DNA of 40,117 nucleotides. It comes from an uncultured Smithella sp. (GTDB taxonomy: Bacteria; Desulfobacterota; Syntrophia; Syntrophales; Smithellaceae). The notes under the pieces are model-generated. The model searched no databases, was not told where the DNA came from, and saw nothing but the letters and a program-made list of their open reading frames with translations. The stretch spans positions 1 to 40,117 of the forward strand of contig CAZVGQ010000001.1 of assembly GCA_964626775.1 (NCBI GenBank), read 5' to 3'. Within the stretch, counting starts at the first letter, position 1; each line of letters starts with the position of its first letter. Shown here piece by piece: positions 1-22,597 of the stretch. The translations under genes and the position numbers were made by a program.

Positions 1-124
1 CCCGGGCAAGATCATGGCTGATCAGGTTTTCGGGCGGAATGCCGCGCCGGTAAAGTCGTTCCAGGGATTTGATTTGCTGGGCGCCGAGTCCTGAAGTATT
101 GCCGAATATTTTATTGATGGTCTG
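1..124 (-). CDS. possible 5' end of a CDS running off the left edge (product unknown)
   Basis: The minus-strand frame is open from the in-frame TGA at 125-127 to the window edge. It translates to QTINKIFGNTSGLGAQQIKSLERLYRRGIPPENLISHDLAR, which is protein-like. There is no ATG, GTG or TTG in the open stretch, so the start is unresolved. From memory it loosely resembles N-termini of HflX-type GTPases; this is unverified. Confidence 0.25.
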
Positions 125-168
125 TCATCCTCATGCCGGGAGTTTCGATGCAAATGCGCGCTTTTTGT

Positions 169-3018
169 TCATTCATACATGGCCGAAAGCAGTTCCAGGA
201 TTCTGGACTGGCCGGGCGATGTCGGATCCGTCGCCATATTGACCGCGTCGCGCGATGTATAAAAGGCGATTTCCTTCAAGGCTTCCCGGGAAATGCCGTA
301 GGATTTGAGCCGCAGGTCGATTTGCAGTTCTGTGTAAAGCCGGCGGAGCGCCGTCTCCAGGTCATCCGACCGGTTGATGAGGTAGGCCATGTCCATAAAC
401 GCGTCGCGGCAGGTTTCCCTGTTGGCCATCACGAAGCCCAGCAGACCGAAGATGGCCGCCCGTCCGTGCGGCAGATGATAATGCGCTCCGATGGCGTGGG
501 TGAGGGCGTGGCCAAGCCCCAGGCCTTTGAGGAACGCCAGGCCGCCGCAGAGGGCCGCCATGCACATGTCGGTCCGCGCGCGCATGTTGTCCGGCTCGCG
601 GTATGCGGTAATGAGGCTCCGGCCGATGAGTTTGATGCCGTAAAGCGCCTTGGATTCGAAGTAAGGATGGTAAGGCGTCGCAAGCGAAACATAGCCTTCG
701 ATGCAGTGCGACAGAGCGTCGACGCCGGATTCGATGGTCAGGCCCGGCGGCATGGTTTTGGTGAAGAGCGGATCGATCACCGCGAGCTTCGGAATGAAGT
801 GATTGCTCATGAGAATGAACTTCAAATCGCGGGCCTTGTCAGTCAAAACGGCGCAGGGATTGACTTCGCTGCCGGTGCCGGAGGTGGTCGGCAGGCAGAT
901 GATCGGCGGAAAGATCGGTTTGATTTTGCCGCCGCCGCCGACAATGCCTTCGTATTCGCGCAGATCCCCTGAATGCGTGACGCGCAGGCCCAGTGTTTTG
1001 GCCGTGTCCAGCGAAGAGCCGCCGCCCAGCCCCAAAATGCCGTTGCAGCCCGTTTCCTTGTACAGGGCGCCCGCGCGTTCGATGAGTTCGATGGGCGGGT
1101 CCGGTTCGACTTCGGCGAAAAATTCCGCTTCAATGCCGCTTTTCTTCAAAATGTCGGCGACTTCGCTGGCCCGACCGCTTTTGAGCATGAACGGATCGGT
1201 GACCAGGAAAATCTTGGACACTTTCATGTCACGGATTTTCCGGCCCATGGATCTGGCGACGCCTTCGCCCATCAGAATGTCGGGCATCGGCGGGATGCGG
1301 ATTTCCCAGACTTTCTTCTTTTCCCGGAACGTGTCGAGGCCCTTCCATAAATTCCGCACTTCTGCTTCGTCGACGTCGAAGACGGAACTGGTCGGCGCGA
1401 CGAGCTCCTCGCGGAAAAAGGTGGGAATCGTCGTATCGATCCTGCTGAACTGCGCCTGTTCGTTGAAAGCCAGCTGGTCGCGCAGGGTTTCCTTGGCGGT
1501 AGCAAGAATGCCCTCTTCGGTCAGCTTAAGGCCGTAGCGCGCGTTCATGAGCCCGGCAAAGAAAGGATACACGGATTCGCCGCCGGGAACGGCGTTGAGG
1601 CAGTAACCGAACGCATCGCAGGCCGCCGCCCGAATCTGCGTCGCCAGCGACGTCTGGATCTGGTCTTTCTTTTCCTTGGGCTGGCGGTAGGTGAGGCCGG
1701 CCGTGTGGTCCGCGCCCATGGGCGAGGAAAAGTACGTGACACCCGTTCCCTTGACCGCGCGGGGATCGTGGGCGGGCAGAGCCTGGCCTTTGAAGGCGGG
1801 AATGCGTTCCACGTTGAGGAAACGGGCCGTTGTCACGACGCCGTTGCCGAGCGCGAAGCCGAGCGGCGTTTCCTTTTCGATTTCCAAAAGCAGGCTTTCC
1901 GCGCCTTTGGCGTCGCCCCAGTTCATTTTGCCCGCTTCGGCCGCGACGCCCAGCGCGCTGCCCGCTTCGATGCCGTCGAGACCGATGTCGTCGCACAGGA
2001 ACTTCAGCCGGGCGATGGCGTCGTTGTCGGTGATGCCCAGGTTGGTTCCCAGAAGAGCGATCGTTTCGTATTCATACGCCGCGCAGATTTTTTTGCCCTC
2101 TTTGTCCGGATAGATGATCGAGCACTGCACCAGACAGCCGGGCATGCAGCCATGCATTTTTCCGCCGCGCTCGAACAGGATCTTCTGAATGTTGTTGCCG
2201 CTGACTTCCGTGAAATTGTCAGGGCGTCCGGAGCGGTAGTTCATGGCCGGAAGCGTGCCGTGGCCCGCGGAGTTGTTGATCGCAAACGGCGTCCCGAAGC
2301 GCGTGTAAAGGCTGATGGTGACGTCGTGTTTCATCATTTCCGCCCATTCGCGGACGGTTTTGCGAAAGGCGTCCGGATCGGCCAGCACGACCTGCTCCGT
2401 TCCAGTCGGGTCCAGAATGACGGCTTTGAGACCTTTGGAGCCCATCACGGCGCCCAGGCCGCCGCGAGCGGCGTTGCGCGAGGGATCGCCGAAAATGTCG
2501 GTGAGCGACACGGACGCCCCCTTGTACTGGCGCTCTCCGGCAATTCCCGTGGAGATCACGGCGACTTTGTCGGAATATTTTTTATGGATGGCGGAAACCA
2601 GGTCGTAATTTTTCAGACCGCGGTACTCTTCGGCCGGCACCAGCTTTACATTATCCTTCGTCACTACGAGCACGCGGAGTTTTCCGTCCCGCGGCATGCC
2701 TTCAAATACGATGGCGCGCAATCCCAGACGATCCAGATACTGCCCGGCGGGTCCGCCCGAGTTCGCTTCCTTGATGCCCTGTGTGAGCGGGCTTTTCGCG
2801 CCGATGGACATACGCCCCAATTGCGGCGCGCGTGTGCCGGCCAGCGGACCGCACGCGACGATGAGCTTATTGTCCGGGCCCAGCGGATCGCATTGCGGCG
2901 GGACTTCCCGGTTGAGGATTTTAGCAATTAAGGCGCTGCCGCCCAAATAGGTCCACTCCGACGGAAGCGGTTCGGCGGATACTTTTTGTTCATTCAGCGA
3001 TACGCGCAGGATTTTCAT
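169..3018 (-). CDS. fusion protein: aldehyde:ferredoxin oxidoreductase (W/Mo-pterin AOR family) N-terminal part plus iron-containing alcohol dehydrogenase C-terminal part
   Basis: A single 949-aa ORF. The N-terminal ~565 aa look like AOR: MKILRVSLNEQK...GGSALIAKIL..., the Cys cluster GCMPGCLVQC, and a DAFGYC motif. The C-terminal ~370 aa look like Fe-ADH: KIFLVTDPFM, GLGGGSSLDTAK, DALSHCIEGY and GHALTHAIGAHYHLPHG. A GGGGGA ribosome-binding site lies upstream of the ATG at 3018. Confidence 0.85.
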   Translation of the reverse strand: MKILRVSLNEQKVSAEPLPSEWTYLGGSALIAKILNREVPPQCDPLGPDNKLIVACGPLAGTRAPQLGRMSIGAKSPLTQGIKEANSGGPAGQYLDRLGLRAIVFEGMPRDGKLRVLVVTKDNVKLVPAEEYRGLKNYDLVSAIHKKYSDKVAVISTGIAGERQYKGASVSLTDIFGDPSRNAARGGLGAVMGSKGLKAVILDPTGTEQVVLADPDAFRKTVREWAEMMKHDVTISLYTRFGTPFAINNSAGHGTLPAMNYRSGRPDNFTEVSGNNIQKILFERGGKMHGCMPGCLVQCSIIYPDKEGKKICAAYEYETIALLGTNLGITDNDAIARLKFLCDDIGLDGIEAGSALGVAAEAGKMNWGDAKGAESLLLEIEKETPLGFALGNGVVTTARFLNVERIPAFKGQALPAHDPRAVKGTGVTYFSSPMGADHTAGLTYRQPKEKKDQIQTSLATQIRAAACDAFGYCLNAVPGGESVYPFFAGLMNARYGLKLTEEGILATAKETLRDQLAFNEQAQFSRIDTTIPTFFREELVAPTSSVFDVDEAEVRNLWKGLDTFREKKKVWEIRIPPMPDILMGEGVARSMGRKIRDMKVSKIFLVTDPFMLKSGRASEVADILKKSGIEAEFFAEVEPDPPIELIERAGALYKETGCNGILGLGGGSSLDTAKTLGLRVTHSGDLREYEGIVGGGGKIKPIFPPIICLPTTSGTGSEVNPCAVLTDKARDLKFILMSNHFIPKLAVIDPLFTKTMPPGLTIESGVDALSHCIEGYVSLATPYHPYFESKALYGIKLIGRSLITAYREPDNMRARTDMCMAALCGGLAFLKGLGLGHALTHAIGAHYHLPHGRAAIFGLLGFVMANRETCRDAFMDMAYLINRSDDLETALRRLYTELQIDLRLKSYGISREALKEIAFYTSRDAVNMATDPTSPGQSRILELLSAMYE

Positions 3019-3056
3019 AAATTCCCCCGGTCAGGATCAAAAGTTTGTGTGGCTGG

Positions 3057-3086
3057 AATATACAGAAGAAAACAGGGGCAAGTCAA
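3057..3086 (-). promoter_or_regulatory. candidate sigma70 promoter for the AOR-ADH gene (TTGACT-N18-TATATT on the minus strand)
   Basis: The reverse complement of 3081-3086 is TTGACT and that of 3057-3062 is TATATT, with an 18-nt spacer. It lies downstream of the abfD terminator and ~40 nt upstream of the start codon. Confidence 0.3.
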
Positions 3087-3164
3087 TGAAATAATAGGCT
3101 GAGGGGCTATTAGGCTGAAGGCCGAAGACTAAAGGATAAAGTAAAAGTTTTTAAAAGAGAAACG

Positions 3165-3200
3165 GGTACTTCCGCCGGATTTTTGTCCAGCGGAAGTACC
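3165..3200 (-). terminator. Rho-independent terminator after abfD
   Basis: An 11-bp perfect stem, GGTACTTCCGC (3165-3175) pairing with GCGGAAGTACC (3190-3200), with a 14-nt loop. On the minus strand it is followed by the T-rich CGTTTCTCTTTTAAAAACTTTT. It sits 8 nt after the abfD stop. Confidence 0.6.
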
Positions 3201-3207
3201 GGGGAAA

Positions 3208-4668
3208 CTATTTCTTTTCTTCCTTGATGCCGGCGATGTTTTTGGCCAGATTTTTCTTTTGCTCCAGATTGCCCTGGCGGGCGATCATGATGCGCTGCGC
3301 CTGGGGCGAACCGGCGCCGTGCATCGACTCCGTGCGGTAACCGACCGCCGCCGTGCCCAGCGTCAGGTTTTCCACCAGCCGCATGATCCGCGCCCGGTCT
3401 TCACAGGAAACATTGGCGGTTCCCTTCAGGTATTTCTCCAGGATTTTCGAAATCTCCGGATTCTTCATGTCTTTCTCGGAAGCCATCGTCACCATCATCC
3501 CGCCCGCGATGTCCTCAGCCAAACGGCAGATTTCATAGGGGAAACGGGTGACGTTCTGCTTGCAGACGTTGGCCAGCAAAAGGTCGATGAGGTAGGTGCC
3601 GGATGCCGTCTTGTGCCCCTGGGCGGAACAGGCGATGCCACAGGAAAAAAGCGTTTCGTTGAGATGCGTCATCTCGATGAGCTTGTCCTTGATGTGGGAG
3701 GCCTTATTCGCTCCGTTGTAATCCGCCGCCAGGGCCGCCGCGCCGATGAGAACGTCGCCCACGCCGACCTTGCAGCCGCCGTAGCTCTGCCGGTGATAAC
3801 CGGCAAACCGCTCGACCAGCATGCCGGAAAACTCAGTTTCGCCGCACATGAGGACGTTTTCCCAGGGAATGAAGACGTTGTCGAAGACCATCAGGGCTTC
3901 ATGGCCGCCAAACTGGTGGTTGCCGACGTCAATGGTGCCGCCTTCCAGTTTCCGCGTGTCGCAGGACTGGCGGCCGTAGATGTAGAAGATGCCCTTCTCA
4001 TCCGCCGGGCAGACGAAGGAGACGGCGTAATCCGCGTCGTCCTTTCCCATGGCGACGGTGGGCATGACCAAAACCCAGTGGGAGTTGACGGCGCCGGTCT
4101 GGTGGGCCTTGGCGCCCCGCACGACGATGCCCTTGTCGTTTTTCTCGACGATGTGGACGTACAGGTCGGGGTCGGCCTGCTGATGGGGAGCCAGTCCCCG
4201 GTCTCCTTTGACGTCGGTCATGGCGCCGTCTACGGTCAGGTCTTCTTCCTGGACCATTTTCAGGAATTGGATGAAGCGTTCATGGTACTTGGTGCCCAGT
4301 TTCCGGTCCATTTCATAGGTGGTGCTGTCGACGGCGTTCATGGCGTCCATGCCCACGCAACGCTGAAAGCAGGAGGCGGTCTGCTGCCCTAAAAGCCGCT
4401 GCATTTTGACTTTCTTGATCAAATCGTCAGTGCTCTGATGCAAGTGGGTGAAACGGTTTATTTTGTTCCCGGTCAGATGGGATTTGGCGGTCATCAAATC
4501 TTCATATTCCGGCTTCTGGGCCAAAGCGTAGGTCATTTTGACGGAGTTCATGGAGGGACGGATAATGGGGTGGTCAACCCAGTTCTCCACCAGCTCCCCC
4601 ATGAGGTAGATCTTGAAGTTCATCCTTCTCAAACTTTCTTCATACTGCTCGGGCGTTTTTAAAGACAT
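3208..4668 (-). CDS. abfD: 4-hydroxybutyryl-CoA dehydratase / vinylacetyl-CoA delta-isomerase
   Basis: The protein resembles Clostridium aminobutyricum AbfD, as I recall it, along its whole length (MSLKTPEQYEESLR..., NRFTHLHQSTDDLIKKVKMQRLLGQQTASCFQRCVGMD, ERFAGYHRQSYGGCKVGVGD, ESMHGAGSPQAQRIMIARQGN). The Cys/His [4Fe-4S] ligand motifs are present. I chose the start at ATG 4668, which is preceded by AGGAGG. The longer ORF reaching 4758 has no ribosome-binding site. Confidence 0.93.
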   Translation of the reverse strand: MSLKTPEQYEESLRRMNFKIYLMGELVENWVDHPIIRPSMNSVKMTYALAQKPEYEDLMTAKSHLTGNKINRFTHLHQSTDDLIKKVKMQRLLGQQTASCFQRCVGMDAMNAVDSTTYEMDRKLGTKYHERFIQFLKMVQEEDLTVDGAMTDVKGDRGLAPHQQADPDLYVHIVEKNDKGIVVRGAKAHQTGAVNSHWVLVMPTVAMGKDDADYAVSFVCPADEKGIFYIYGRQSCDTRKLEGGTIDVGNHQFGGHEALMVFDNVFIPWENVLMCGETEFSGMLVERFAGYHRQSYGGCKVGVGDVLIGAAALAADYNGANKASHIKDKLIEMTHLNETLFSCGIACSAQGHKTASGTYLIDLLLANVCKQNVTRFPYEICRLAEDIAGGMMVTMASEKDMKNPEISKILEKYLKGTANVSCEDRARIMRLVENLTLGTAAVGYRTESMHGAGSPQAQRIMIARQGNLEQKKNLAKNIAGIKEEKK

Positions 4669-4869
4669 TAGTTTCCTCCTGGCGTTGCGGCTTTGATCGA
4701 GCCGTCTGTTGTTTGATGGTTTGTTTTGTAATTTGGCCACTCCTTGTGGGGATGTCAACCAACGATCGCGGCCGAATCAGGGAACGCTCTCGATAATCTG
4801 GCCACCTGATTACCTAAAGGTCATGCGAGGTGGTGCGAGGTTACAAGGGTGTTCCCTGCGCTCACTTTC

Positions 4870-6051
4870 CTACAACATTTCAATAATAAAAGCCTGGCCG
4901 GGGCCGCCGCTGGCACAAAGCGCCGCGCAGCCGAATTTCTTGCCGCGGCGTCTGAGTTCGCCCATCATGGTGACGATCAGCCGGGCGCCCGTCGCACCGA
5001 CCGGATGGCCCATGCTGATGCCCGAGCCTACGGCGTTGACGTTCTCCAGGGAAATCTTCAACTCGCGGTTGCAGCCGATGACCTGGGCGGCAAAGGCTTC
5101 GTTCAATTCAAAATAATCAATGTTTTCCAGCTTCATCTTTGCAAATTTCAGAGCATTTTTGACGGCCGGGACCACGCCCATGCCCATGATGCGGGGCTCG
5201 ACGGAGCCGGGGGCGGAAGCCACCACCCGGGCGATGGGTTTCACCCCCAGTTCTTTGGCTTTCTCGGCTGCCATCATGATCAGGCAGGAACCCGCGTCAT
5301 TCAAGCCGGACGCGTTGCCGGCGGTGACCGTGCCGTCTTTTTTGAAAACGGGCTTGAGTTTGCTTAAAGACTCCATGCTGGTGTCCGCCCGGGGATGCTC
5401 GTCTCTTTCGAACAGGGCCGGCCCTTTTTTTGTTTTGATTTCCACCGGAACGATTTCATCCTTGAACCAGCCTTTTTCAATGGCCGCGCAGGCTCTCTGA
5501 TGGCTCATCAATGCCCATTCATCCTGTTCCTGCCGGGATATGCCGTACTGGTCGGCGATGTTGTCGGCCGTAATGCCCATGTGGTAGCCCAGAAGCGCGT
5601 CCACCAGGCCACCGATCATCAAGCTGTCCTGGATTCTTTCGCCGTCGTTGAGGCGGTACCCCTTGCGGGCGCCGAACAGCAGATACGGAGCGTTGCTCAT
5701 GCTTTCAATGCCGACGACCGCGCCGATGTCGACTTTGCCCAGCATGATTTCCTGGGAAAGCAGCTCCGCGCCTCGCATGGAAGAACAGCACTGCTGGTGA
5801 ACCGTGAAAGCAAAAGATTCTACCGGCAGCTCCGCACCGAGCGCGATGTGACGGGCGCTGTTTCCCGGCGCCCCGGCCTGGTTGCACTGGCCCGCTACGA
5901 CTTCCTGAATCAGGTTTTTATCGATGCCGGCCTTCGCAATGCCGCCTTTTAGCGCCGCGATTCCCAATTGAATGGGGCTGAATCCCGACAGAGACCCCAT
6001 GTAATCTCCAATAGCCGTTCTGGCTCCGCTGACAATCACCACTTCTCTCAT
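4870..6051 (-). CDS. acetyl-CoA C-acetyltransferase (thiolase)
   Basis: MREVVIVSGARTAIGDYMGSL N-terminus, with NEAFAAQ, GHPVGATG and CASGGPGQA C-terminal thiolase motifs. The start is ATG 6051, downstream of GAGAGAGG. Confidence 0.9.
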   Translation of the reverse strand: MREVVIVSGARTAIGDYMGSLSGFSPIQLGIAALKGGIAKAGIDKNLIQEVVAGQCNQAGAPGNSARHIALGAELPVESFAFTVHQQCCSSMRGAELLSQEIMLGKVDIGAVVGIESMSNAPYLLFGARKGYRLNDGERIQDSLMIGGLVDALLGYHMGITADNIADQYGISRQEQDEWALMSHQRACAAIEKGWFKDEIVPVEIKTKKGPALFERDEHPRADTSMESLSKLKPVFKKDGTVTAGNASGLNDAGSCLIMMAAEKAKELGVKPIARVVASAPGSVEPRIMGMGVVPAVKNALKFAKMKLENIDYFELNEAFAAQVIGCNRELKISLENVNAVGSGISMGHPVGATGARLIVTMMGELRRRGKKFGCAALCASGGPGQAFIIEML

Positions 6052-6437
6052 GATTTTGACCTCTCTCAATTTTATTTTTTGCGCTTTGGAAATAAGCGTT
6101 AATACACGTTTTGAACCACCCGATACCGCGGCAGTCCATCGCTTCTGACCAATAACTTACAAAAGTCTCTTTTCAAAATATTCGTGCTCTTACCAATTAT
6201 TATTTTATGTGGCAAGTCCTTATTAACGAATAGACCTAAAAGCGCTGAAAGAAGAACCGCATAGTAATCATTATGTAATAACAAAGGGATACGTATTACG
6301 TCCGTTTGTTTTGCAGGCGAATATTGAACATGGATAAATTGTGTATTTGTTTTTTCAATTAGGCAAATCTTTTCAGTGAAGATCCGTTCCTGCCTTGATC
6401 AAAGATATAGGGATCGGGGGTAAGTCTGAATACATTT

Positions 6438-7550
6438 TTACAACAGGCTCGCAAATCCACGGATATCGTTAATGGTTGCCAAGTACACCTCTGGCATCGC
6501 GGTTCTAAACATGCAATCACCGATGTGGCATGTGCCGTTTACCGTACGGCCGACCGCCTTGACGGAAGCGTGCAATAATTTGCGATAGTAAGCCAGTCCT
6601 TCATCTCGGAGAGGGCAGAGTTCATTGACGGATATGACGTGCGGCGGGAGACCGATCAGGTCTTCCTTTGCGGCGAAGTAAGGCCAGCACAGGGGGTTGT
6701 GGTTGTTGGACCCGCCGGGATCATAGACTGAAGCCAAGACGCTGCTCAGGGCATTATTGACAAAGTACAGGTCATTTTCCGTCAGAGACGGAAGGTTTTC
6801 AGTCTGCTGGGATGGTTCCCAGGCATACGCGCCATAGATATACGGCGCCATGGCATAAACGCCGTTAATGATCTGCAGGAGTCCATCTCGTTTGGCTTTC
6901 AACGCTGTCGCCAGGGCGAGATTTGCCCCTCCTGAGTCTCCGGAAATCACTATCTTGGAAAGGCCAAGCCGCTTGCGGTTGGCATGGAGCCACGCCAGCG
7001 CGCTGGTGCAGTCGTCCAGTCCGCTGGGAAATGGATGCGGACCCAAAATCCCCGCCGCATTGCGGAATTCAACCCCGACGGCAACCATACCGGCCGCTGC
7101 GAGGTGATCTCGCCATTGTTGATACAGGGGACCGGCAGCCTGCAACATAACCATTGCCCCGCCGTGCAAATGGAGAATGCAGGGCAATGGTTTTTTTATG
7201 TGATCAGGTTCGTGGATGTAAAGATGCAAGGAATGACCATCAATCCCTGTGATGGTTTCGGTTGTCCGCACCACCGTGGTGATCTCCGGCGCGTCCTTCA
7301 CCAACGCCGCAAAAAAGGCCTCAAAACCGGTTTCCGCCGCTGCACAGAAATGGAGCTTGTCGGCAAGGGTAGAATCCGGTCGGACAGGAGGCGCGGGCGG
7401 AAAGGTATCTAATCCGAATGGCGCCAGCGCAGCGACCATGCGCGGATCGGAACGGGGGTCCTGCCGGAGATCACTCGCCGGATTACCCAGGCGCCCCGGT
7501 AAGACCATGTTACGCCTTTTTCCGTTGGTTTCGACGTTTATCGGATGCAA
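6438..7550 (-). CDS. alpha/beta-fold carboxylesterase, hormone-sensitive-lipase type (family IV)
   Basis: An HGG oxyanion motif (LHLHGGAMVM), a GDSGG nucleophile elbow (ISGDSGGANLA) and no signal peptide. The TTG start at 7550 is preceded by AAGGAG. Confidence 0.8.
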   Translation of the reverse strand: MHPINVETNGKRRNMVLPGRLGNPASDLRQDPRSDPRMVAALAPFGLDTFPPAPPVRPDSTLADKLHFCAAAETGFEAFFAALVKDAPEITTVVRTTETITGIDGHSLHLYIHEPDHIKKPLPCILHLHGGAMVMLQAAGPLYQQWRDHLAAAGMVAVGVEFRNAAGILGPHPFPSGLDDCTSALAWLHANRKRLGLSKIVISGDSGGANLALATALKAKRDGLLQIINGVYAMAPYIYGAYAWEPSQQTENLPSLTENDLYFVNNALSSVLASVYDPGGSNNHNPLCWPYFAAKEDLIGLPPHVISVNELCPLRDEGLAYYRKLLHASVKAVGRTVNGTCHIGDCMFRTAMPEVYLATINDIRGFASLL

Positions 7551-7574
7551 GGGGATTCTCCTTTTGTTGTTACG

Positions 7575-8846
7575 TCAATCTAGGATTGCCTGATACACCG
7601 CATTGCGCAAAATTTTACGGTCATAAAGCCGCTGGGCCGGTTCCTGAATCATAAAAATAACGAAGAGCTCTTTTTGAGGATCAACCCAGAAACTGGTGCC
7701 GGCCAATCCGTACCAGTAATAATCTCCTGCGCTTCCCGGCCAGGGTTCTTTACCGTCCTGAAGCCGGACGGCGACGCCCATTCCGTAGCCATAACCGGCG
7801 CCCGGCAAGTAAAGAGGACCGGGTTTGATTTCGGGCCCTAGTTGATTGGTTGTCATCTGTTCTATCATTTTGGGTTCGAGCAGTCGAACACCGTCAAGCT
7901 GTCCTTTGTTGAGCATCATTTGCAAAAAGCGGGCGTAGTCGGCCGCCGTGGAGACCATCCCCGCGCCGCCGGAGAGCCAGGTCGGCGCTGTGCTGACGTT
8001 AATCAGAAAAGGAACCTTTCCTGTTTTAGGATCTTTTTGTCCTTGGGCCAGGCGGTTCAGTCTGTCCGGCTGTACGTAGAATGCGGAATCCGTCATTTTA
8101 AGAGGACGGGTAATTCGTTCCTCGACAAAACGGTCCAGAGGTATTCCGGAAACGATTTCAATGACGCGGCCCAGAATATCCGTTGAAAGGCTGTATTCCC
8201 AGGTGGTGCCAGGCTCGTGGGCCAGCGGCAGTTTGCTCAGCTTTGCGGCAATATCCTGGAGATTCTGGTTGGGCATTTCCACGCCCGCCTTGATGTAAAG
8301 CGATTTCGTTGCGGATTTTCCAAGGAATCCGTAAGTTAATCCGGATGTATGTCTCAGCAGATCGAGAATCGTCATGGGTTTGGTCGCGGGTTTTTCGATG
8401 CAGACCGGATTGCTGCTGGCGTCCTTGGATTCCTCGCAGACCTTGAGGTCGGCGAAGGCAGGGATAAATTTGGACACCGGGTCCGAAAGCGTCATTTTGC
8501 CTTCCTGAACCAGCATCAGGGCGCCCACCGTCACAACAGGCTTCGTCATGGAGTAAATGCGGAAAATGGAGTCCTTCTGCATGGCCGACTTATTTTCTTT
8601 ATCCCGCATGCCGAAACTCTCAAAGTAAGCGATTTTACCGCGTCTTGCGACCAGAACCACGGCCCCGGGCAGTTTTTCCACCTGAACATCCGCCGCGACC
8701 GTCTCCGTGATGCGGTTGAGTTTTTCAGATGATAAGCCCACGCTTTCCGGCTTGACAGCGGAAAGATTGCCTGCGCACCCCGCTGTCATGTAAACCAAAA
8801 CGGCAGTCAGGATGACCTTTAACCAGAAACGTTTGATCGTTTTCAT
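7575..8846 (-). CDS. beta-lactamase-fold serine hydrolase (family VIII esterase / class C-like), predicted lipoprotein
   Basis: An S-x-x-K motif (IYSMTKPV). The N-terminal signal peptide has a lipobox-like sequence, VLVYMTAGC. The start overlaps the upstream stop (ATGA). Confidence 0.8.
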   Translation of the reverse strand: MKTIKRFWLKVILTAVLVYMTAGCAGNLSAVKPESVGLSSEKLNRITETVAADVQVEKLPGAVVLVARRGKIAYFESFGMRDKENKSAMQKDSIFRIYSMTKPVVTVGALMLVQEGKMTLSDPVSKFIPAFADLKVCEESKDASSNPVCIEKPATKPMTILDLLRHTSGLTYGFLGKSATKSLYIKAGVEMPNQNLQDIAAKLSKLPLAHEPGTTWEYSLSTDILGRVIEIVSGIPLDRFVEERITRPLKMTDSAFYVQPDRLNRLAQGQKDPKTGKVPFLINVSTAPTWLSGGAGMVSTAADYARFLQMMLNKGQLDGVRLLEPKMIEQMTTNQLGPEIKPGPLYLPGAGYGYGMGVAVRLQDGKEPWPGSAGDYYWYGLAGTSFWVDPQKELFVIFMIQEPAQRLYDRKILRNAVYQAILD

Positions 8847-9652
8847 ATTTTCTCCTTTACCGATTGTAAAAACGCCAGAACGGCTTGATTGAACGGTTCA
8901 CTGTCTTCGATAAAAAAACAATGCCTCAGGGCTGGAAACATTTTCAGATGCGCATGAGGCATCAGCTCTTTTAAAATCACGGAATTTTGCGGCGGAATGA
9001 GCGGATCATCCTCTCCGGACAAAATCAGTGTCGGCGCTTTGACCAAGGAGATGCGGTTGACCGTATCATGCTTCTGGCAGGCGTTGAACTGTTGTACAAA
9101 CGCCTCCGCCGGCTGGTACCAGCGCATGGAAAGCTCGCTGAAGATCCTGACCTCCTCAGGGTGGTTGCGGATAAATCGATCGGAGAAAAAAATATCCATA
9201 TTCTTTTGAAGGATTTCCTCCGGGGTCAGCCCTTGTATATCCGCAAATTTTTCCGCCCGGTCTGCGCTCATGGTCACGGCGCGGGTCCCGCCGGCGCCTG
9301 TGGATACCAGCGTCAGACTGTCGACCATGTGTGGATGGCTAATGGCCAGCTCCTGGGCGATATAACCTCCCATGGAATAACCGAGAATGTGAGCGTGTTT
9401 AATGCCCAGAGAGCGCATCAATCCGGCCGTATCATCGGCAAATTGCTCGATGCTGTATTCACCCGCCGGTTTGTCGGTTCGCCCGGACCCGCGATTATCG
9501 AACACGATCACCTGGTAATGCGCCGACAGATCCGGCAATTGTTTGTACCACCATTCAATGTTGCGGCGAATGCCCATGATGAGCAACAGGGGTTCGCCGC
9601 TCCCGTGAATTTCGTAATATATATTGATCCCGTTGACATTTTGTTGGGGCAT
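8843..9652 (-). CDS. alpha/beta hydrolase (esterase or C-C hydrolase type)
   Basis: NGINIYYEIHGSGEPLLLIMG and a GYSMGG nucleophile elbow. I chose the start at ATG 9652, 2 nt after the upstream gene's TAA. The longer ORF would overlap that gene. Confidence 0.8.
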   Translation of the reverse strand: MPQQNVNGINIYYEIHGSGEPLLLIMGIRRNIEWWYKQLPDLSAHYQVIVFDNRGSGRTDKPAGEYSIEQFADDTAGLMRSLGIKHAHILGYSMGGYIAQELAISHPHMVDSLTLVSTGAGGTRAVTMSADRAEKFADIQGLTPEEILQKNMDIFFSDRFIRNHPEEVRIFSELSMRWYQPAEAFVQQFNACQKHDTVNRISLVKAPTLILSGEDDPLIPPQNSVILKELMPHAHLKMFPALRHCFFIEDSEPFNQAVLAFLQSVKEKI

Positions 9653-9653
9653 T

Positions 9654-10892
9654 TTAGTCCTCGATTTTGATCCAGACTTTTTTGTTGTTGCTTTTCGCCA
9701 GTTTTTTGTCCTTCTCAAATTCCTGCTGTGTTTTTTGCCACCAGAAGAATTCCTGAGGAACGGTGAATTTTCCGTTTTTGACCATGGTGACCCTGGAGGT
9801 CTGCATGAAGCGCCCCTTCTCCGTCAGCCCGTAGTTTTCCAGAACAAATTTATCGCCCGTTTGCGGGAAGGCTTTGGGAAACGCGGCGCGGATGGCATGA
9901 ACATCCGTTGCCGTTCCCGCGATGGTCATGGCTTTGGCCAGAGCATGAACGGCGCCATAGTTGGTCAGAACGTCGTAGGTATAGGGTCTTTTGTAGCTGG
10001 CGCTATAGGATTTACCGAACGTTTTGCTGGCGGGAACATCGATCATCGACGGCGGGGCCACACCGATGGTTCCTTCCATCAGTTTGACGTCCTTCAAAAT
10101 CGAGGCGATGATTTCCGGTTTGGCTTGCTCCATCAGGACAAAATTTCCTTTAAATCCCATGTTTCTGGCCTGTTCAATCACCAGCGCGGTCGGCGCCGTC
10201 GGTCCACCGGCCACAATGATATCGGGTTTCGTCGCCATGATGGCTGTCAGTTGAGACGAGAAATCCGTTTCCGTATAGTAATTTGCCGGTTTGTCGAGTG
10301 TGATCACACCGCCTTTCTTTTCCCAGTAAGCTTTGAATGCACCCTTCCATTCGTCGCCATAACCACCCACGGTGACCAGCAATCCGGCGCTCCGTGCTCC
10401 CTGCGCCCAGGCCATCTCGGCTTCAGGGTAAACATAACTTAAAAGTGTTGTGGTGATAATCAATCGCAAGCTGTTGGGAATTTGGACGGCCCTGGGGCTG
10501 GTCGTATACCCCATCACCAGAAATTCGTTGTTTTTTTCTTCGTTGACCTTCAACAGGGCGGAGATCGTAATAAAGGCCGGATTGAACACAGCAACGGCGC
10601 CGTTGGACCGCAAACGTCGTGCATTATTGACCGTCTGCACGGGGTCAATACGATCATCCATTCTTTCGAGCTTAAACGTATGAGGCACGCCGGAAACCTT
10701 AAAACCTCCGGCAGAATTAATTGCATTGACGGCCATTTCAATGCCGTTGAAACAATCCTGACCATATTCCGCCGCCGGACCGCTCAAAGGTCCTGTGAAT
10801 CCGATCAGCACTTCTTTGGCATGGCTTGCCGGAGCTGCAAAGAGCATAACAAAAAAACCCAACAACACAATGACTCCCTTTAATTTTCTCAT
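9654..10892 (-). CDS. ABC transporter substrate-binding protein (type 1 periplasmic-binding fold, Liv/Bra-like)
   Basis: A signal peptide (MRKLKGVIVLLGFFVMLFAAPASHA) followed by IGFTGPLSGPAAEYGQD, typical of Leu/Ile/Val-binding-protein family members. Confidence 0.85.
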   Translation of the reverse strand: MRKLKGVIVLLGFFVMLFAAPASHAKEVLIGFTGPLSGPAAEYGQDCFNGIEMAVNAINSAGGFKVSGVPHTFKLERMDDRIDPVQTVNNARRLRSNGAVAVFNPAFITISALLKVNEEKNNEFLVMGYTTSPRAVQIPNSLRLIITTTLLSYVYPEAEMAWAQGARSAGLLVTVGGYGDEWKGAFKAYWEKKGGVITLDKPANYYTETDFSSQLTAIMATKPDIIVAGGPTAPTALVIEQARNMGFKGNFVLMEQAKPEIIASILKDVKLMEGTIGVAPPSMIDVPASKTFGKSYSASYKRPYTYDVLTNYGAVHALAKAMTIAGTATDVHAIRAAFPKAFPQTGDKFVLENYGLTEKGRFMQTSRVTMVKNGKFTVPQEFFWWQKTQQEFEKDKKLAKSNNKKVWIKIED

Positions 10893-10950
10893 AATCCTTT
10901 CCTTTCTTTTGAAATGTAATGTTTGTTAACCCGTTTGAATCTGCAAAATG

Positions 10951-12246
10951 CTATTGTCTGTAAATCTCTTTAAATTCCCGCTTTAAGTCTTCTCTGAATT
11001 CAGGAGCCGCGATTTTTGACAGGGCTTCCACGCGTTCCCTGACGGTTTTCCCCCAAATGTTGGCAATTCCATATTCCGTGACAATGTAATCTACTTCGGC
11101 ACGCGTCGTGGTAACAGCCTGGCCTCTTTCAAAGGCTGCCACAATCCTCGATTTTGTGCCGGACGCCGCAGTAGCCGGCAAAGCAATCACACTCCTTCCC
11201 CCTGATGAAATTCTACAGCCTCTCACAAAATCAACTTGTCCTCCAACACCGCTATACTGAACGGGACCGATGGCATCTGCCGCAACCTGTCCCAACAGGT
11301 CAACGGCCACCGCTGAATTAACGGAAAACATGTTGTCGTTTCTTCCAATAACGTAAGGATTGTTGGTATAATCAACAGGATGCATCTCAATCATGGAATT
11401 CTCATGCATCCACTCATAGAGCTGGTCGCTCCCCAGGGCGAATGTAAAAATCATTCTGCCGCGATGGAAGTTCTTTTTCCGGCAGGTGATGATCCCTTTT
11501 TCAACGAGATGCATCACCCCGTCAGAAATCATTTCCGAATGGATGCCGAGGTCATGCTTTCCTTCTATAAATCTCAATATGGCATCCGGAATCTGGCCAA
11601 ATCCCAGCTGCAGACAGTCGCCGCTTTTAATTAATGTGGCCACATTAGACGCAATAGCTTCTTCCACCGGCCCAATGTTGGGCGACGGAAGCGGCAACAT
11701 GGGACGATCACTGACAATAAAGTGACCGATCTGTGAAACATGCAGAAAAGTGTCTCCATAGGTTTTCGGCATGAAGGGCGAAACTTCCGCAATAACCTTT
11801 TTGGCATTTAAAGCCGCGGCCAGGGAATAATCCACGGAGATGCCCAGGCTGACGTTCCCCACTTTATCGGGCAGCGATACCGAAATCAGGGCAACGTCAA
11901 TCGGCAGAACGCCTCTACGAATTAATGAGGGATAGTCGCTGAGGAATGCCGCCGTGAAATCAGCACGATCCTCTCTTATGGCCTGCCTTTGCGTAGGTCC
12001 GGCAAACATGGCATTATGTCGAAAAGAATTCTGATATTCAGGACGACAATATAAACTTTTGCCATAAGATACCATGTGCACGATTTCTACGTTCTGGAGT
12101 TCATGAGCTCGTTTGACCATCGCGTCATAAACCGGTTCAGGCGTGCCTCCGCCGGTTCCTGAAATGATTCGATCCCCCGACTTGATCAAATGTGCTGCTT
12201 CTTCTACGGTGATTGCTCGTTCACGGATGTATTGGTTCCAGTCCAT
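10951..12246 (-). CDS. acetyl-CoA hydrolase/transferase family protein, 4-hydroxybutyrate CoA-transferase-like
   Basis: Typical length (~431 aa) and motifs: GIHSEMISDG (candidate catalytic Glu), SGVGGQVDF (GxGGxxD) and YIVTEYGIANIWGK. ATG 12246 lies 7 nt after AGGAG. Confidence 0.8.
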   Translation of the reverse strand: MDWNQYIRERAITVEEAAHLIKSGDRIISGTGGGTPEPVYDAMVKRAHELQNVEIVHMVSYGKSLYCRPEYQNSFRHNAMFAGPTQRQAIREDRADFTAAFLSDYPSLIRRGVLPIDVALISVSLPDKVGNVSLGISVDYSLAAALNAKKVIAEVSPFMPKTYGDTFLHVSQIGHFIVSDRPMLPLPSPNIGPVEEAIASNVATLIKSGDCLQLGFGQIPDAILRFIEGKHDLGIHSEMISDGVMHLVEKGIITCRKKNFHRGRMIFTFALGSDQLYEWMHENSMIEMHPVDYTNNPYVIGRNDNMFSVNSAVAVDLLGQVAADAIGPVQYSGVGGQVDFVRGCRISSGGRSVIALPATAASGTKSRIVAAFERGQAVTTTRAEVDYIVTEYGIANIWGKTVRERVEALSKIAAPEFREDLKREFKEIYRQ

Positions 12247-12272
12247 CACTAACTCCTATTGGCCTTTTCTTG

Positions 12273-12983
12273 TTAAACACCCAGGTATGTCTTCATGATA
12301 TCCGGCCGCCTTTTTAGTTCCAGAACACTGCCCTGCCACAGTACATGACCCTTTTCGAGGATGTAGACGCGGTCTGATACATTAAGCGCGAAACTGGAAT
12401 TTTGTTCGGAGAGAAGAATCGTCAACCCTTCCTTCTTGAGTTCCATAATTTGATCTTCAATCATCTGGGTGACCATGGGCGCGAGACCTTCGGAGGGTTC
12501 GTCGAGCAGCAGCAATAAAGGATTTCCCATCAAAGTACGGGCAATCGTGAGCATCTGCTGTTCGCCTCCTGAAAGCGTGCCTGCCCATTGGCCGCTGCGC
12601 GTTTCCAGAACCGGGAACAGGCGATGCACTTTCTCCATTGTCCAGTTGAGGCTCTTTCTGCTTTTCGGACTGTCCTTCATGGCGATTTCGAGGTTTTCAC
12701 GTACGGTCAGATTGGAAAATATTTCCCGATCTTCAGGCACAAATCCCACGCCGAGGCGGGCGATTTTGAAGGGCGGCTTGCTGGTGATTTCAGTTCCCAG
12801 GAACTTGATGTGGCCGGACTGTGGATGCGTAAGCCCCATAATGCTGCGAAAAGTTGTTGTCTTTCCCACACCATTGCGCCCCAGCAGACACACCGTCTCA
12901 CCTTCATGAACCTCCATGGAAACATTGAATAAAATATGACTCAGATCATAGTAAGTGTTGATCTCACGAATTTCTAATAGCAT
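12273..12983 (-). CDS. ABC transporter ATP-binding protein (LivF-type)
   Basis: Walker A GRNGVGKTT, signature LSGGEQQ and Walker B LLLLDEP. Its start overlaps the upstream stop by 1 nt. Confidence 0.9.
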   Translation of the reverse strand: MLLEIREINTYYDLSHILFNVSMEVHEGETVCLLGRNGVGKTTTFRSIMGLTHPQSGHIKFLGTEITSKPPFKIARLGVGFVPEDREIFSNLTVRENLEIAMKDSPKSRKSLNWTMEKVHRLFPVLETRSGQWAGTLSGGEQQMLTIARTLMGNPLLLLLDEPSEGLAPMVTQMIEDQIMELKKEGLTILLSEQNSSFALNVSDRVYILEKGHVLWQGSVLELKRRPDIMKTYLGV

Positions 12984-13726
12984 CAGTGATTTCCCTCCCC
13001 CAGATAAATTCTCTGCACTTCACTGTTATTGCGGACGCTCTGTGGCGTTCCGCTGAAAATCACCGCGCCTTGATGCAAAACAATGATTTTGTCGGATATC
13101 CCGAAGACGACCTTCATATCGTGTTCCACAAAGATTAGTGTCAATCCCCGTTCCCTGACTAGTTTCTGAATGAGTTGAGTGGTTTCTTCCGTTTCCTGCG
13201 GGCTCATCCCCTGTGTGGGCTCATCGAGCAACAATAAGGAAGGATTCGTTGCCAGTGCAATGCCCATTTCCAGACGCTTCTGATCCCCATGCGCCAGAAG
13301 ACCTCCTTTGAAATGCTTTTTGTTCAGGAGTCCCACACTGTCCAGAATGGCTTCCGTTTCAGAAACGACCATTTTTTTGGCATTGGAAAAAAGCAGGTGA
13401 CTTTTACCCGTGGCGGAAAGGATGGCCACTTGAATGTTTTGAAAGGTAGTCAGCTTGGAAAAAATGTTGATGCGCTGGAACGAACGGCCTATCCCCATGC
13501 GCGAAATCAAATGAGGCGCAATGCCGGTGATGTTCCTGCCACGAAAAAAAACGTTTCCGGAATCAGGAACAATATGTCCGGTGAGGAGATTGAACAAGGT
13601 TGTTTTTCCCGCCCCGTTGGGTCCGATGACGGACACGAGTTCTTTTTCCTGAATTTGGAAGCTGATGTCGTTGGTCGCGGTGATGCCGCCGAATTTCTTG
13701 ATCAGATTGTTCGCTTCAAAAATCAT
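12983..13726 (-). CDS. ABC transporter ATP-binding protein (LivG-type)
   Basis: Walker A GPNGAGKTT and Walker B LLLLDEP. The start MIFEANNLIKKFGG is at 13726, in an ATGA overlap with the permease stop. Confidence 0.9.
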   Translation of the reverse strand: MIFEANNLIKKFGGITATNDISFQIQEKELVSVIGPNGAGKTTLFNLLTGHIVPDSGNVFFRGRNITGIAPHLISRMGIGRSFQRINIFSKLTTFQNIQVAILSATGKSHLLFSNAKKMVVSETEAILDSVGLLNKKHFKGGLLAHGDQKRLEMGIALATNPSLLLLDEPTQGMSPQETEETTQLIQKLVRERGLTLIFVEHDMKVVFGISDKIIVLHQGAVIFSGTPQSVRNNSEVQRIYLGEGNH

Positions 13727-14703
13727 AGTCCGTTTTCTTCCTTTCCGCCACTGAACCGGTCCGCCGCCCAAGCCAGCTTTTCATGAATAAAGCCGACGAT
13801 CCCGCTGCGCATGAATAAGACCAAAAACGCGATGATGATCCCCAGATAAAACATCCAGTAAGTTGTTCCTTTGGCAATGGTTTTGCTCAGGAAGATATAA
13901 ACCACGGAACCAACGATGGGTCCGGCAAAGCTGTGCAGTCCGCCGAGAAGACAGACGACAAGCATATCGGTGGATTTTGCCCAGTGTGCATAATCGGGAA
14001 AGACGCTGCCCGCAAAAACGCAGTAGAGCGAACCGGCGATGCCCAGAAAAATGCTGGAGATGACAAAGATGGCAAGCTGATAGCGGCGAACGGCCACGGA
14101 AATAAATTCCGTGCGCAGCGGGTTTTCGCGAATGGACTGAATGGTGATGCCAAAAGGAGAATGGACGATCTTCCAGATGATAAAAATGCAAATGAGCGTA
14201 ACGGCCAGAATGAAATAGTAAGACTGAATGATGGAGGACACATAGTCGGGAATGGGAACGCCGATGATGCCGTTGTCGCCGTTGGTGAAATCGTACCACT
14301 GAAAAATCACAGTCCAGATGATTTGGGCAAAGGCCAGCGTCAAAAGCGCGAAGTAAACCGCATTGCGGCGGACGCAAAACCATCCCACCGCAACGCCGAC
14401 GAGTCCCGCCATGACCGGCGCCGCAAGAAACGCGGCGGGCAAAGGCATGCCGTAACGCGACAGAAGAATCGCGGTCGTGTATGCGCCCACGCCGTAAAGT
14501 CCCGCGGGCCCGAAGGACACCATCCCGCCGTAGCCGACGATCAAATTCAGCGCGCAGCCGGCCAGCGCCATGATCAGCATTTCTATGATTAGACTGATCC
14601 AGCTTTTGGAGACGACCAATGGCGCTGCGATCAACAAAACAATGACGGCCAAAACCAGCCAGATACCGGCCGTGCGTAATTTGGCAAATAACGGTGTATA
14701 CAA
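13723..14703 (-). CDS. branched-chain-amino-acid-type ABC permease (LivM-type)
   Basis: A polytopic membrane protein with LivM-like length and composition. It sits between a LivH-type gene and a LivG-type gene. TTG start. Confidence 0.85.
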   Translation of the reverse strand: MYTPLFAKLRTAGIWLVLAVIVLLIAAPLVVSKSWISLIIEMLIMALAGCALNLIVGYGGMVSFGPAGLYGVGAYTTAILLSRYGMPLPAAFLAAPVMAGLVGVAVGWFCVRRNAVYFALLTLAFAQIIWTVIFQWYDFTNGDNGIIGVPIPDYVSSIIQSYYFILAVTLICIFIIWKIVHSPFGITIQSIRENPLRTEFISVAVRRYQLAIFVISSIFLGIAGSLYCVFAGSVFPDYAHWAKSTDMLVVCLLGGLHSFAGPIVGSVVYIFLSKTIAKGTTYWMFYLGIIIAFLVLFMRSGIVGFIHEKLAWAADRFSGGKEENGL

Positions 14704-14714
14704 TTGATTTCCCC

Positions 14715-15593
14715 CTATTCCGGCTTACCCATGAGACCCCATGGACGCACGATTAAAATGATGATCATGAGCATGAAGGGAAAAGCCACGGCCAGTTTCG
14801 GCATCACCAGAATCCCAAAAGCATTGAGAAAACCCAGAATGACCGCACCGATAAAAGCGCCAGGCAGGCTTCCCAGACCGCCGATGACAACGATAATGAA
14901 GCATTCAATAATCACGTGCATATCCGCGCCCAGCGCCACAACCGACATGGGGGGCATCAAAGCACCGGCGAGCCCCGCAAGATAACAGCCCAGCATGAAA
15001 ACGCCGGTATAAACCCGGGGCACATTGATGCCCAGCGCGTTGGCCATATCGCGGTTCAGCGTGACGGCCCGTACAATCCGACCTAATTCGGTATAGCGCA
15101 TCAAAGCGAGCAAAGCGGCAAAAATGGCCATTCCGCAAATGATCAGGAAGATGTTGTAAATCGGGAATGACATACCCAGAAAGGCAATGCTTCCGGTCAG
15201 CGGCCAGGGGACGGCTATGGTTTTAAAGGAAACACCAAAAACGTATTTTAAAACGTCGCCAAAAATCAAAATCAGCGCGAAGGTCAATATGTACTGGTAG
15301 AGCATGTCCTGCGAATAGATGCGCCGAAGCAGCAGGACTTCAACAAATCCTCCCAGTACGGCCACCGTGATGGGGGCAAGAAGCAGAGCCCACCAGAAAG
15401 AACCGCCGGCGTTGGCAAACATGTTTGTGAAGGCAAAACACAAAAAGCTTCCCATCATGAAAAAGGTCCCGTGCGCCAGGTTCAGAATTTTCATGGTTCC
15501 GAAGATGAGGGATAACCCCGCTGCAATAAGAAACAAGACAAGCCCGACGCTGATTCCACTGATAAATTGACTGACAAACGACTCAATCGTCAC
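14715..15593 (-). CDS. branched-chain-amino-acid-type ABC permease (LivH-type)
   Basis: A LivH-like N-terminus (SGISVGLVLFLIAAGLSLIFGTMKILNLAHG). The GTG start is preceded by AAGGAGG. Confidence 0.85.
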   Translation of the reverse strand: MTIESFVSQFISGISVGLVLFLIAAGLSLIFGTMKILNLAHGTFFMMGSFLCFAFTNMFANAGGSFWWALLLAPITVAVLGGFVEVLLLRRIYSQDMLYQYILTFALILIFGDVLKYVFGVSFKTIAVPWPLTGSIAFLGMSFPIYNIFLIICGMAIFAALLALMRYTELGRIVRAVTLNRDMANALGINVPRVYTGVFMLGCYLAGLAGALMPPMSVVALGADMHVIIECFIIVVIGGLGSLPGAFIGAVILGFLNAFGILVMPKLAVAFPFMLMIIILIVRPWGLMGKPE

Positions 15594-18665: not shown

Positions 18666-18687
18666 AATGTTCAAGGCTGAGACTATT

Positions 18688-22591: not shown

Positions 22592-22597
22592 AAAGCC

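Follow-up and report, generated by a model that had tools for sequence, protein, structure and literature searches.

What do the 4-hydroxybutyrate genes at one end of an uncultured Smithella contig encode together, and how did they come to lie side by side? The window analyzed here is the entire contig C1 (40,117 bp; GenBank CAZVGQ010000001.1, assembly GCA_964626775.1). It comes from a fragmented genome (1.83 Mb in 379 contigs, 78% complete), and the nearest homologues of its proteins carry the names Smithella, Smithellaceae or Syntrophales. An earlier note, made from the sequence alone, had described a near-complete 4-hydroxybutyrate (4HB) route spread over two adjacent operons. The five enzyme-coding open reading frames and their family assignments were confirmed by matches to Pfam, PDB and NCBIfam-type models. 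The division into two operons was not: we count at least three transcription units (an island operon, thiolase-abfD and a fusion gene) plus a distant crotonase gene. The operons named in that note also appear to have different histories, thiolase-abfD being resident and the upstream block mostly acquired. From homology and synteny we consider it rather probable that the acquired island and the thiolase-abfD pair form one catabolic unit, which would take 4HB or its esters to acetyl-CoA. The four core genes are:

169 to 3018, minus strand: fusion of an aldehyde:ferredoxin oxidoreductase (AOR) with an iron-type alcohol dehydrogenase (Fe-ADH), 949 aa; Pfam AFOR_N, AFOR_C, Fe-ADH and ADH_Fe_C in one frame
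3208 to 4668, minus strand: abfD, predicted 4-hydroxybutyryl-CoA dehydratase / vinylacetyl-CoA isomerase; 777 bits against PDB 1U8V
4870 to 6051, minus strand: acetoacetyl-CoA thiolase (acetyl-CoA C-acyltransferase); TIGR01930, 411 bits, above the cutoff of 240.55
10951 to 12246, minus strand: AbfT/Cat2-type CoA-transferase (putative 4-hydroxybutyrate CoA-transferase); AcetylCoA_hydro-type, Pfam PF02550 and PF13336

Read along the minus strand from 16897 to 169, the gene order is a first periplasmic binding protein (SBP1), two permeases, two ATPases, the CoA-transferase, a second binding protein (SBP2), an alpha/beta hydrolase, a beta-lactamase-fold esterase and an HSL-type esterase. After a 368-nt gap come thiolase and AbfD, and after a further gap of 190 nt the AOR::Fe-ADH fusion.

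Over 480 residues AbfD shares 71% identity with the enzyme of Clostridium aminobutyricum (1U8V), and it also matches the archaeal-type dehydratase PDB 6VJR with 662 bits. In the 1U8V alignment all four [4Fe-4S] ligands (Cys99, Cys103, Cys299 and His292 in C. aminobutyricum numbering) are kept, and so are the active-site positions Tyr296, Glu257, Glu455, Thr190 and Lys300 of the mutagenesis literature. The thiolase gene lies directly upstream of abfD in 10 of 10 related loci examined in the genus (g1; among them L010, L012, L021-L025, L027 and L028). The window AbfD shares 92 to 97% identity with those of other Smithella genomes and 66% with the AbfD of a Desulfatitalea operon discussed below; the gene is therefore regarded as resident and not imported, and thiolase-abfD as a resident Smithella operon. 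AbfD homologues are close to universal in the order: with a threshold of E <= 1e-100 they were found in 234 of 301 Syntrophales genomes, often in two to five or more copies each. We found no discussion of AbfD in Smithella or Syntrophus in the literature, the 2026 Smithellaceae comparative-genomics paper included (literature coverage was incomplete).

Upstream of the thiolase gene the window departs from its closest relative (L010, GCA_030153525.1). By blastn, window positions 1 to 6090 correspond to L010 13018 to 6976 with 90% nucleotide identity, and positions 20162 to 26865 correspond to L010 6703 to 1 with 94%. The flank proteins of the two are 88 to 99% identical. At the site of 14,071 bp in the window L010 has 273 bp. 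The GC content is 0.44 to 0.52 across most of the insert and 0.57 to 0.60 around abfD and the fusion gene. The insert and its genes are:

6091 to 20161: 14.07-kb stretch absent from L010 (blastn); about 6091 to 18650 is the apparent horizontally acquired island
6438 to 7508, minus strand: HSL-family esterase, cytoplasmic; Pfam Abhydrolase_3, HGG and GDSGG motifs
7575 to 8846, minus strand: beta-lactamase-fold (family VIII-like) esterase; Pfam Beta-lactamase, AcmB-like (169 bits), SMTK nucleophile motif
8843 to 9652, minus strand: alpha/beta hydrolase, PcaD enol-lactonase-like, cytoplasmic; TIGR02427, 145 bits, below cutoff; GYSMG nucleophile
9654 to 10892, minus strand: second periplasmic binding protein SBP2; Peripla_BP_6, signal peptide
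12273 to 15593, minus strand: LivFGMH-type ABC importer (Pfam), with ATPases at 12273-12983 and 12983-13771 and permeases at 13723-14703 and 14715-15593
15665 to 16897, minus strand: first periplasmic binding protein SBP1; Pfam Peripla_BP_6/5, signal peptide
17167 to 18441, minus strand: PAS-PAS-LuxR(GerE) regulator of the island (Pfam)
18688 to 19935, minus strand: decayed resident binding-protein gene, the longest open reading frame keeping only Peripla_BP_6 positions 106-341

The beta-lactamase-fold esterase begins with a lipoprotein signal peptide (...MTAGC) and is therefore predicted to act outside the cytoplasm. Inspection of the N-termini of the HSL esterase and the alpha/beta hydrolase revealed no signal peptide. 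The pseudogene at 18688-19935 has intact relatives (63 to 69% identity) directly upstream of thiolase-abfD in L012, G297 and G263 (loci L012, L024 and L028), and this part of the insert is best read as old resident DNA. SBP2 is a paralogue of the pseudogene.

An operon of the donor type for the island was found in the Desulfobacterales. In Desulfatitalea tepidiphila (locus L016, BCAG01000006) the order is binding protein, permease, permease, ATPase, ATPase, CoA-transferase and AbfD, followed by a convergent crotonase gene and a PAS-LuxR regulator. The window proteins are closely similar to their counterparts there: SBP1 87%, the permeases 87% and 84%, the ATPases 79% and 84%, the CoA-transferase 82% and the regulator 71%. 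Two metagenome contigs (L017 and L018) carry the same operon, with the N-terminus of AbfD directly after the CoA-transferase. The D. tepidiphila CoA-transferase (P0130) is the closest named relative in the global protein collection, while the 300 sampled Syntrophales genomes contained none more than 59% identical to that of the window. A contig scan with the CoA-transferase as query gave two loci only, one of them a 2-kb fragment. From these comparisons the island appears to descend from a Desulfobacterales operon of the type ABC importer-CoA-transferase-abfD, acquired horizontally without its abfD. In the window, SBP2 and the three hydrolases occupy the place of abfD, and the resident thiolase-abfD follows on the same strand. 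The earlier note had thought it unusual that the CoA-transferase gene sits in a transporter operon and not beside abfD. The placement is no oddity, because this type of transporter operon normally ends in abfD (L016, L017 and L018); ABC importer, CoA-transferase and abfD make up a conserved Desulfobacterales architecture.

The junction between island and thiolase is found a second time in a Logan contig (L019, SRR22387900), where the order is ATPase (92% identity), CoA-transferase (87%), SBP2 (94%), alpha/beta hydrolase (85%), an esterase remnant and thiolase (89%). Since this contig repeats the island-thiolase order, the junction must be real and retained, and the divergence of the island genes (85 to 94%), which is like that of the thiolase (89%), fits co-inheritance since a single acquisition. 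In this deletion variant of the island the remnant (L019 3689-4303) consists of an N-terminal piece of the beta-lactamase-fold esterase fused to a C-terminal piece of the HSL esterase; that lineage can thus do without two of the three hydrolases. An assembly chimera was considered as the source of the island and rejected, given that a single contiguous relative is syntenic with the window on either side of the island and that L019 repeats the junction. The island borders showed no integrase, no tRNA and no direct repeats flanking the insert.

The CoA-transferase is AbfT-like in sequence. Its five best PDB matches (383 to 447 bits) were all deposited as 4HB CoA-transferases; the identity is 48% with 3EH7 and 44% with AbfT 3GK7 (395 bits). 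The catalytic-glutamate motif GIHSEM (Glu238 in AbfT) is kept, and the stretch GIHSEMISDGV is identical to that of AbfT. A comparison with Cat1 and acetate-type enzymes, proposed in the earlier note as a phylogenetic placement, was made here by scores, and acetyl-CoA hydrolase/Cat1-like chains reached only 41 to 58 bits against the 383 to 447 bits of the 4HB chains; YgfH/ScpC models gave 91 to 108 bits. Linkage to abfD recurs in the relatives of this CoA-transferase. Those at 82% (L016), 63% (L037), 61% (L038) and 59% (G080/L026) identity each directly adjoin abfD, and from the compared coordinates about 19 such neighbour pairs occur across the Syntrophales families. In the window abfD lies 6.3 kb downstream of the CoA-transferase gene on the same strand. 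In L038, an unrelated metagenome contig, a metallo-beta-lactamase-fold hydrolase (8315-9136) is encoded directly after the AbfD/CoA-transferase pair; it could be a lactonase feeding 4HB. Hydrolases of unrelated folds are therefore found repeatedly beside CoA-transferase and AbfD, which is compatible with a 4HB precursor that is a lactone or an ester and is not proof of one.

Next we looked for signals of transcription:

17012 to 17027 and 17077 to 17092, in the gap between regulator and SBP1: two TTAC-N8-GTAA palindromes, candidate operators of the PAS-LuxR regulator
3165 to 3200, minus strand: intrinsic-terminator-like hairpin directly after the abfD stop codon; 15-bp stem with 9 GC pairs, T-rich tail
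3057 to 3086, minus strand: promoter-like element TTGACT-18-TATATT before the fusion gene, kept in L010 and L012

The palindromes are the only two matches to TTAC-N8-GTAA in the 40-kb window, where 0.13 would be expected, and both are kept upstream of the D. tepidiphila operon; they are good candidates for operators of the regulator. We detected no terminator in the gap that separates the thiolase gene from the last esterase gene, so read-through from the island into thiolase-abfD may take place. The hairpin after abfD is present at the same place in the alignment of L010, L012 and L025, with differing stem sequences. Hairpin and promoter-like element, both present in relatives, therefore predict that the fusion gene is a transcription unit of its own.

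The following scheme is proposed. A precursor ester would be attacked in the periplasm by the lipoprotein esterase, and the two binding proteins and the Liv-type ABC importer would take up 4HB or an ester or lactone precursor, from which the two cytoplasmic hydrolases would release 4HB. The AbfT-type CoA-transferase would then form 4HB-CoA at the expense of an acyl-CoA donor. The resident AbfD, serving in place of the island's own, would convert 4HB-CoA to crotonyl-CoA by dehydration and isomerization. Hydration and oxidation of crotonyl-CoA would be carried out in trans, by the crotonase below and probably others, and by a 3-hydroxyacyl-CoA dehydrogenase (Hbd) such as that on contig C307. The thiolase would finally split acetoacetyl-CoA into two acetyl-CoA. 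The island, under its own PAS-LuxR regulator, would be the front end of this unit. The fusion, transcribed separately, would interconvert acid, aldehyde and alcohol with ferredoxin and NAD(P)(H), presumably without release of the aldehyde; beside abfD its most economical substrates would be 4HB/succinate semialdehyde/succinate or 1,4-butanediol/4-hydroxybutanal/4HB.

28316 to 29098, minus strand: generic short-chain enoyl-CoA hydratase (crotonase); Pfam ECH_1, PRK07658 276 bits, below cutoff

The crotonase gene call is sound (ECH_1), though the gene lies outside the span of the earlier note, 16 kb from the CoA-transferase gene and in the neighbourhood of a second transporter operon; its membership in the 4HB route is possible but unproven. 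That note saw no Hbd and no SucD gene in the window, in agreement with the lack of any 3HCDH_N match on the contig, and it suggested looking for hbd, etf and sucD in the rest of the genome. The first two were found on other contigs, while the search for sucD gave no gene of this type in the genome (78% complete). Four genes are Hbd-like (3HCDH_N; contigs C307, C202, C47 and C27), and one of these is a classical 3-hydroxybutyryl-CoA dehydrogenase (PRK05808, 406 bits, cutoff 408). The Aldedh family is represented in this genome by two genes only, an MdlD-like non-acylating enzyme and ProA. A complete clostridial succinate/4HB pathway, with both SucD and Cat1, was not found in this incomplete metagenome-assembled genome.

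Several observations weigh against the catabolic 4HB unit. The CoA-transferase shares only 44% identity with characterized AbfT, and the AbfT/Cat2 family includes butyrate- or acetate-preferring enzymes. The relatives of SBP1 and SBP2 in PDB are too distant to point to a ligand, SBP1 having no close solved structure with a ligand that could be named, and the family-model matches of the three hydrolases carry no 4HB-specific signal. Upstream of the thiolase gene no TTAC-N8-GTAA palindrome was found, only a 10-mer half-site (6151-6160) which is near chance; co-regulation of the island and thiolase-abfD is therefore not claimed. In G145, G239, G279, G264 and G297 the thiolase gene is preceded by a FadD11-like acyl-CoA ligase gene, a setting that hints at general beta-oxidation. 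The predicted separate transcription of the fusion gene is a further point, together with its absence from 10 of 33 genus genomes that have thiolase-abfD (e.g., L027 and L028) and its unrelated contexts outside genus g1, which include Usp, CarB, a sigma-54 activator and an MFS transporter.

Part of this evidence would also fit a coincidental juxtaposition, in which the island handles another ester or amide (e.g., 3-hydroxybutyrate oligomers or short-chain acyl esters), the CoA-transferase is a general short-chain acyl-CoA:acetate transferase and the site is an insertion hotspot. The top NCBIfam match of the CoA-transferase is in fact butyryl-CoA:acetate CoA-transferase (275 bits, below cutoff), and the silence of the hydrolases on 4HB is in keeping with such substrates. 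The region upstream of the thiolase gene differs in almost every genus genome examined: besides the ligase, which in G279 and G264 is accompanied by a distant CoA-transferase gene, there are binding proteins, a SpoIIE-type response regulator or an aminotransferase, and in L010 nothing. But in three records the most similar operons (82% identity) have abfD as their last gene, the clade members at 59 to 63% identity adjoin abfD as well, and the junction of island and thiolase is kept in a second lineage with similar divergence on its two sides (85 to 94% and 89%). We therefore judge coincidence to be unlikely. The upstream ligase of other Smithella was also considered as a 4HB-CoA ligase and rejected; it is of the FadD11 or long-chain type, and for this reason it was not used as 4HB evidence.

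The role of the AOR::Fe-ADH fusion is a separate question from that of the catabolic 4HB unit. The fusion call made in the earlier note stands: it is a single frame of 949 aa with four Pfam domains, conserved across Syntrophales. The tungsten-type AOR domain occupies residues 1-540 and is followed by a linker and the iron-type ADH domain (about 578-949). In the alignment to PfAOR 1AOR and to 9MQX the cluster motif reads HGCMPGCLVQC (C-x3-C-x3-C), compared with C-x2-C-x3-C in 9MQX, a one-residue insertion. The fourth cluster cysteine is in DAFGYC (DxxGxC), and the pterin motif CDDIGLD is kept. The AFOR_C match covers positions 4-344 of 385; the last 40 or so are unmatched, and there the sequence enters the linker. 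By these sequence features the N-terminal part belongs to the AOR family and is a predicted tungsten or molybdenum enzyme. The Fe-ADH match (3-168 of 168) and the ADH_Fe_C match (1-194 of 194) are essentially complete, and GGGSSLD, VDALSH and the H-rich HALTHAIGAHYHLPHG are visible in this domain as candidate NAD(P)/metal motifs. The ErcA, 4HB-dehydrogenase, choline-dehydrogenase and lactaldehyde-reductase models score the ADH domain similarly, all far below their cutoffs; the 4HB-dehydrogenase model NF058672 gave 232 bits (cutoff 500) and the ErcA model, at 258 bits, a higher score. The fusion shares 70 to 96% identity with over 120 clusters of proteins about 949 aa long (Smithella, Smithellaceae and Syntrophales). 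With that many full-length clusters, and full-length copies in several families of the order, the fusion is no assembly or frameshift artefact.

The fusion gene adjoins abfD in at least 14 genomes of genus g1, in both paralogue lineages (about 75% and 83 to 96% identity). Tandem duplicates, about 75% and about 84% identical to the window copy, adjoin abfD in G245 (C30), G259 (C35) and G295 (C203). In a genome of the sister genus g4 (L031, G111:C1:190000-208000) the fusion gene is part of a co-directional string (4040-15871) of EtfB, EtfA, an MmdA-type methylmalonyl-CoA carboxyltransferase, the fusion, a 611-aa acyl-CoA dehydrogenase, a crotonase and an SdhA/FrdA-type flavoprotein. The same type of acyl-CoA dehydrogenase gene follows the fusion gene in L012. 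The g4 context links the fusion to propionate/succinate and butyryl-CoA metabolism. In a search of 1.84 billion representative proteins, AOR-then-ADH fusions were found down to 35% identity (about 950-977 aa; P0333, P0358 and P0364) and so were ADH-then-AOR fusions (about 1004-1029 aa; P0242, P0247 and P0252), all confirmed with Pfam. That the two orders occur in unrelated clusters suggests that fusion took place independently, and it argues that the AOR and ADH domains share an aldehyde intermediate. We found no description in the literature of AOR fused with Fe-ADH, and no mention of AOR in the 2026 Smithellaceae genomics paper (literature coverage was incomplete).

A reading of the fusion unrelated to 4HB has to be taken seriously, and we place it a little short of an even chance. 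The enzyme would be a general alcohol-to-acid oxidizer in syntrophic alcohol oxidation, or an acid-to-alcohol electron sink, with AdhE-like logic and a tungsten AOR. AOR and ADH together act on an acid/alcohol couple in acetogens and in Pyrococcus. The varying contexts outside genus g1, the predicted promoter and terminator and the two domain orders in unrelated clusters all point this way. Set against them are an abfD adjacency that persists through about 25% sequence divergence and in both paralogues in the genus, and the repeated linkage with acyl-CoA dehydrogenase and crotonase genes.

The earlier note had proposed that the fusion could stand in for the SucD/4HbD pair. A specific replacement of these two enzymes seems to us doubtful. 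Improbable, too, is the fuller version, that the fusion is a CoA-independent succinate/4HB oxidoreductase which uses ferredoxin and NAD(P)H and channels succinate semialdehyde, and which with AbfD and thiolase makes up a shunt between C4-dicarboxylates and crotonyl- or acetyl-CoA bypassing Cat1, SucD and 4HbD. As the g4 fusion gene lies beside carboxyltransferase and SdhA/FrdA genes, such a shunt could belong to the unresolved enzymology of syntrophic propionate and succinate metabolism.

The direction of flux raises the same issue for the resident genes as a whole. They could run from acetyl- or crotonyl-CoA through 4HB-CoA, 4HB and succinate semialdehyde to succinate, yielding NADH and reduced ferredoxin, or reductively from succinate to crotonyl-CoA; the fusion would then be a CoA-independent replacement of Cat1, SucD and 4HbD, and the island a later add-on. 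The AbfD reaction is reversible, fusion and abfD are adjacent in at least 14 genomes, the g4 string joins the fusion to EtfBA, carboxyltransferase, acyl-CoA dehydrogenase, crotonase and SdhA/FrdA genes, and no SucD type was found in the genome, all of which would suit this alternative. The adjacency, however, is limited to one genus and crosses a terminator, and neither a methylmalonyl-CoA mutase nor an SdhA/FrdA (C-terminal domain) was found in the 78%-complete genome, in line with the reduced methylmalonyl-CoA pathway that has been reported for Smithella (PMC13685792). Feeding of the route from propionate by way of succinate was rejected as unsupported in this genome for the same two absences. 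The near-equal scores of the ADH domain on four subfamily models also give the alternative no help. In addition, labelling of S. propionica by de Bok and co-workers in 2001 is said to have excluded CO2-incorporating propionate routes. We regard flux in the other direction as having a small chance of being right, and prefer the catabolic direction, from 4HB to acetyl-CoA.

Two features of the remaining window may be added:

20682 to 28149, plus strand: second Liv-type ABC operon, which also encodes a binding protein and a translationally coupled pair of family-III CoA-transferases
38007 to 39905, plus strand: 632-aa protein in which a GNAT acetyltransferase is joined to an N-terminal part resembling a CoA-transferase

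The second ABC operon lies divergently beside thiolase-abfD also in L010, L012, G145 and G239 (L021 and L022), and in G239 a crotonase gene comes after the binding-protein genes, as in the window. The same cluster may be fed by this operon as well. Homologues of about 630 aa of the 632-aa protein are common in Syntrophales.

Smithella and its relatives are key syntrophs of oil reservoirs and methanogenic digesters, with a central enzymology of which large parts have yet to be worked out. The locus would represent a catabolic pathway assembled by horizontal transfer, in which an uptake and activation module of a sulfate reducer came to lie upstream of the dehydratase operon of the host. If the substrate is 4HB, gamma-butyrolactone or an ester of 4HB or 1,4-butanediol, the locus might, speculatively, bear on the anaerobic fate of polyester building blocks.

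The core chemistry is that of the known clostridial and archaeal 4HB route. With the 4-aminobutyrate/succinate route of C. aminobutyricum and C. kluyveri (AbfD, AbfT/Cat2, 4HbD, SucD and Cat1) the Smithella genes share AbfD, an AbfT-family CoA-transferase and the crotonase, Hbd and thiolase steps. Unlike the clostridial route, they come without a SucD that could be found, without a stand-alone 4HbD and without abfT beside the resident abfD. Their CoA-transferase gene is part of an ABC-transporter/esterase operon that was imported into an obligate syntroph of the Thermodesulfobacteriota, and an AOR::Fe-ADH stands where the redox steps would be expected. The archaeal 3-hydroxypropionate/4-hydroxybutyrate and dicarboxylate/4-hydroxybutyrate cycles also use an AbfD-type dehydratase to link C4 acids, crotonyl-CoA and acetyl-CoA. 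Their own features are an AMP- or ADP-forming 4HB ligase, succinate semialdehyde made from succinyl-CoA and an autotrophic setting, of which there is no sign here. The fusion resembles AdhE, and the unfused AOR and ADH of acetogens and Pyrococcus furiosus, in combining an aldehyde module with an iron-type ADH, such that the aldehyde could pass between sites. The aldehyde module of AdhE is an NAD-dependent acylating aldehyde dehydrogenase, whereas that of the fusion is a predicted tungstopterin/[4Fe-4S] AOR, ferredoxin-linked and CoA-independent; in contrast to the known AOR and ADH pairs it is one chain. The closest likeness is to the D. tepidiphila operon, with importer, CoA-transferase and regulator 71 to 87% identical and in the same order, and with the palindromes conserved; the window differs in lacking the abfD of that operon and in having SBP2 and three hydrolases, and then the resident thiolase-abfD, in its place. 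We found no description of this ABC-importer/CoA-transferase/abfD operon type in the literature we covered, which was incomplete. New with respect to the known route are the operon type itself, its capture without abfD beside a resident abfD in a syntroph, the added esterases and the AOR::Fe-ADH neighbour.

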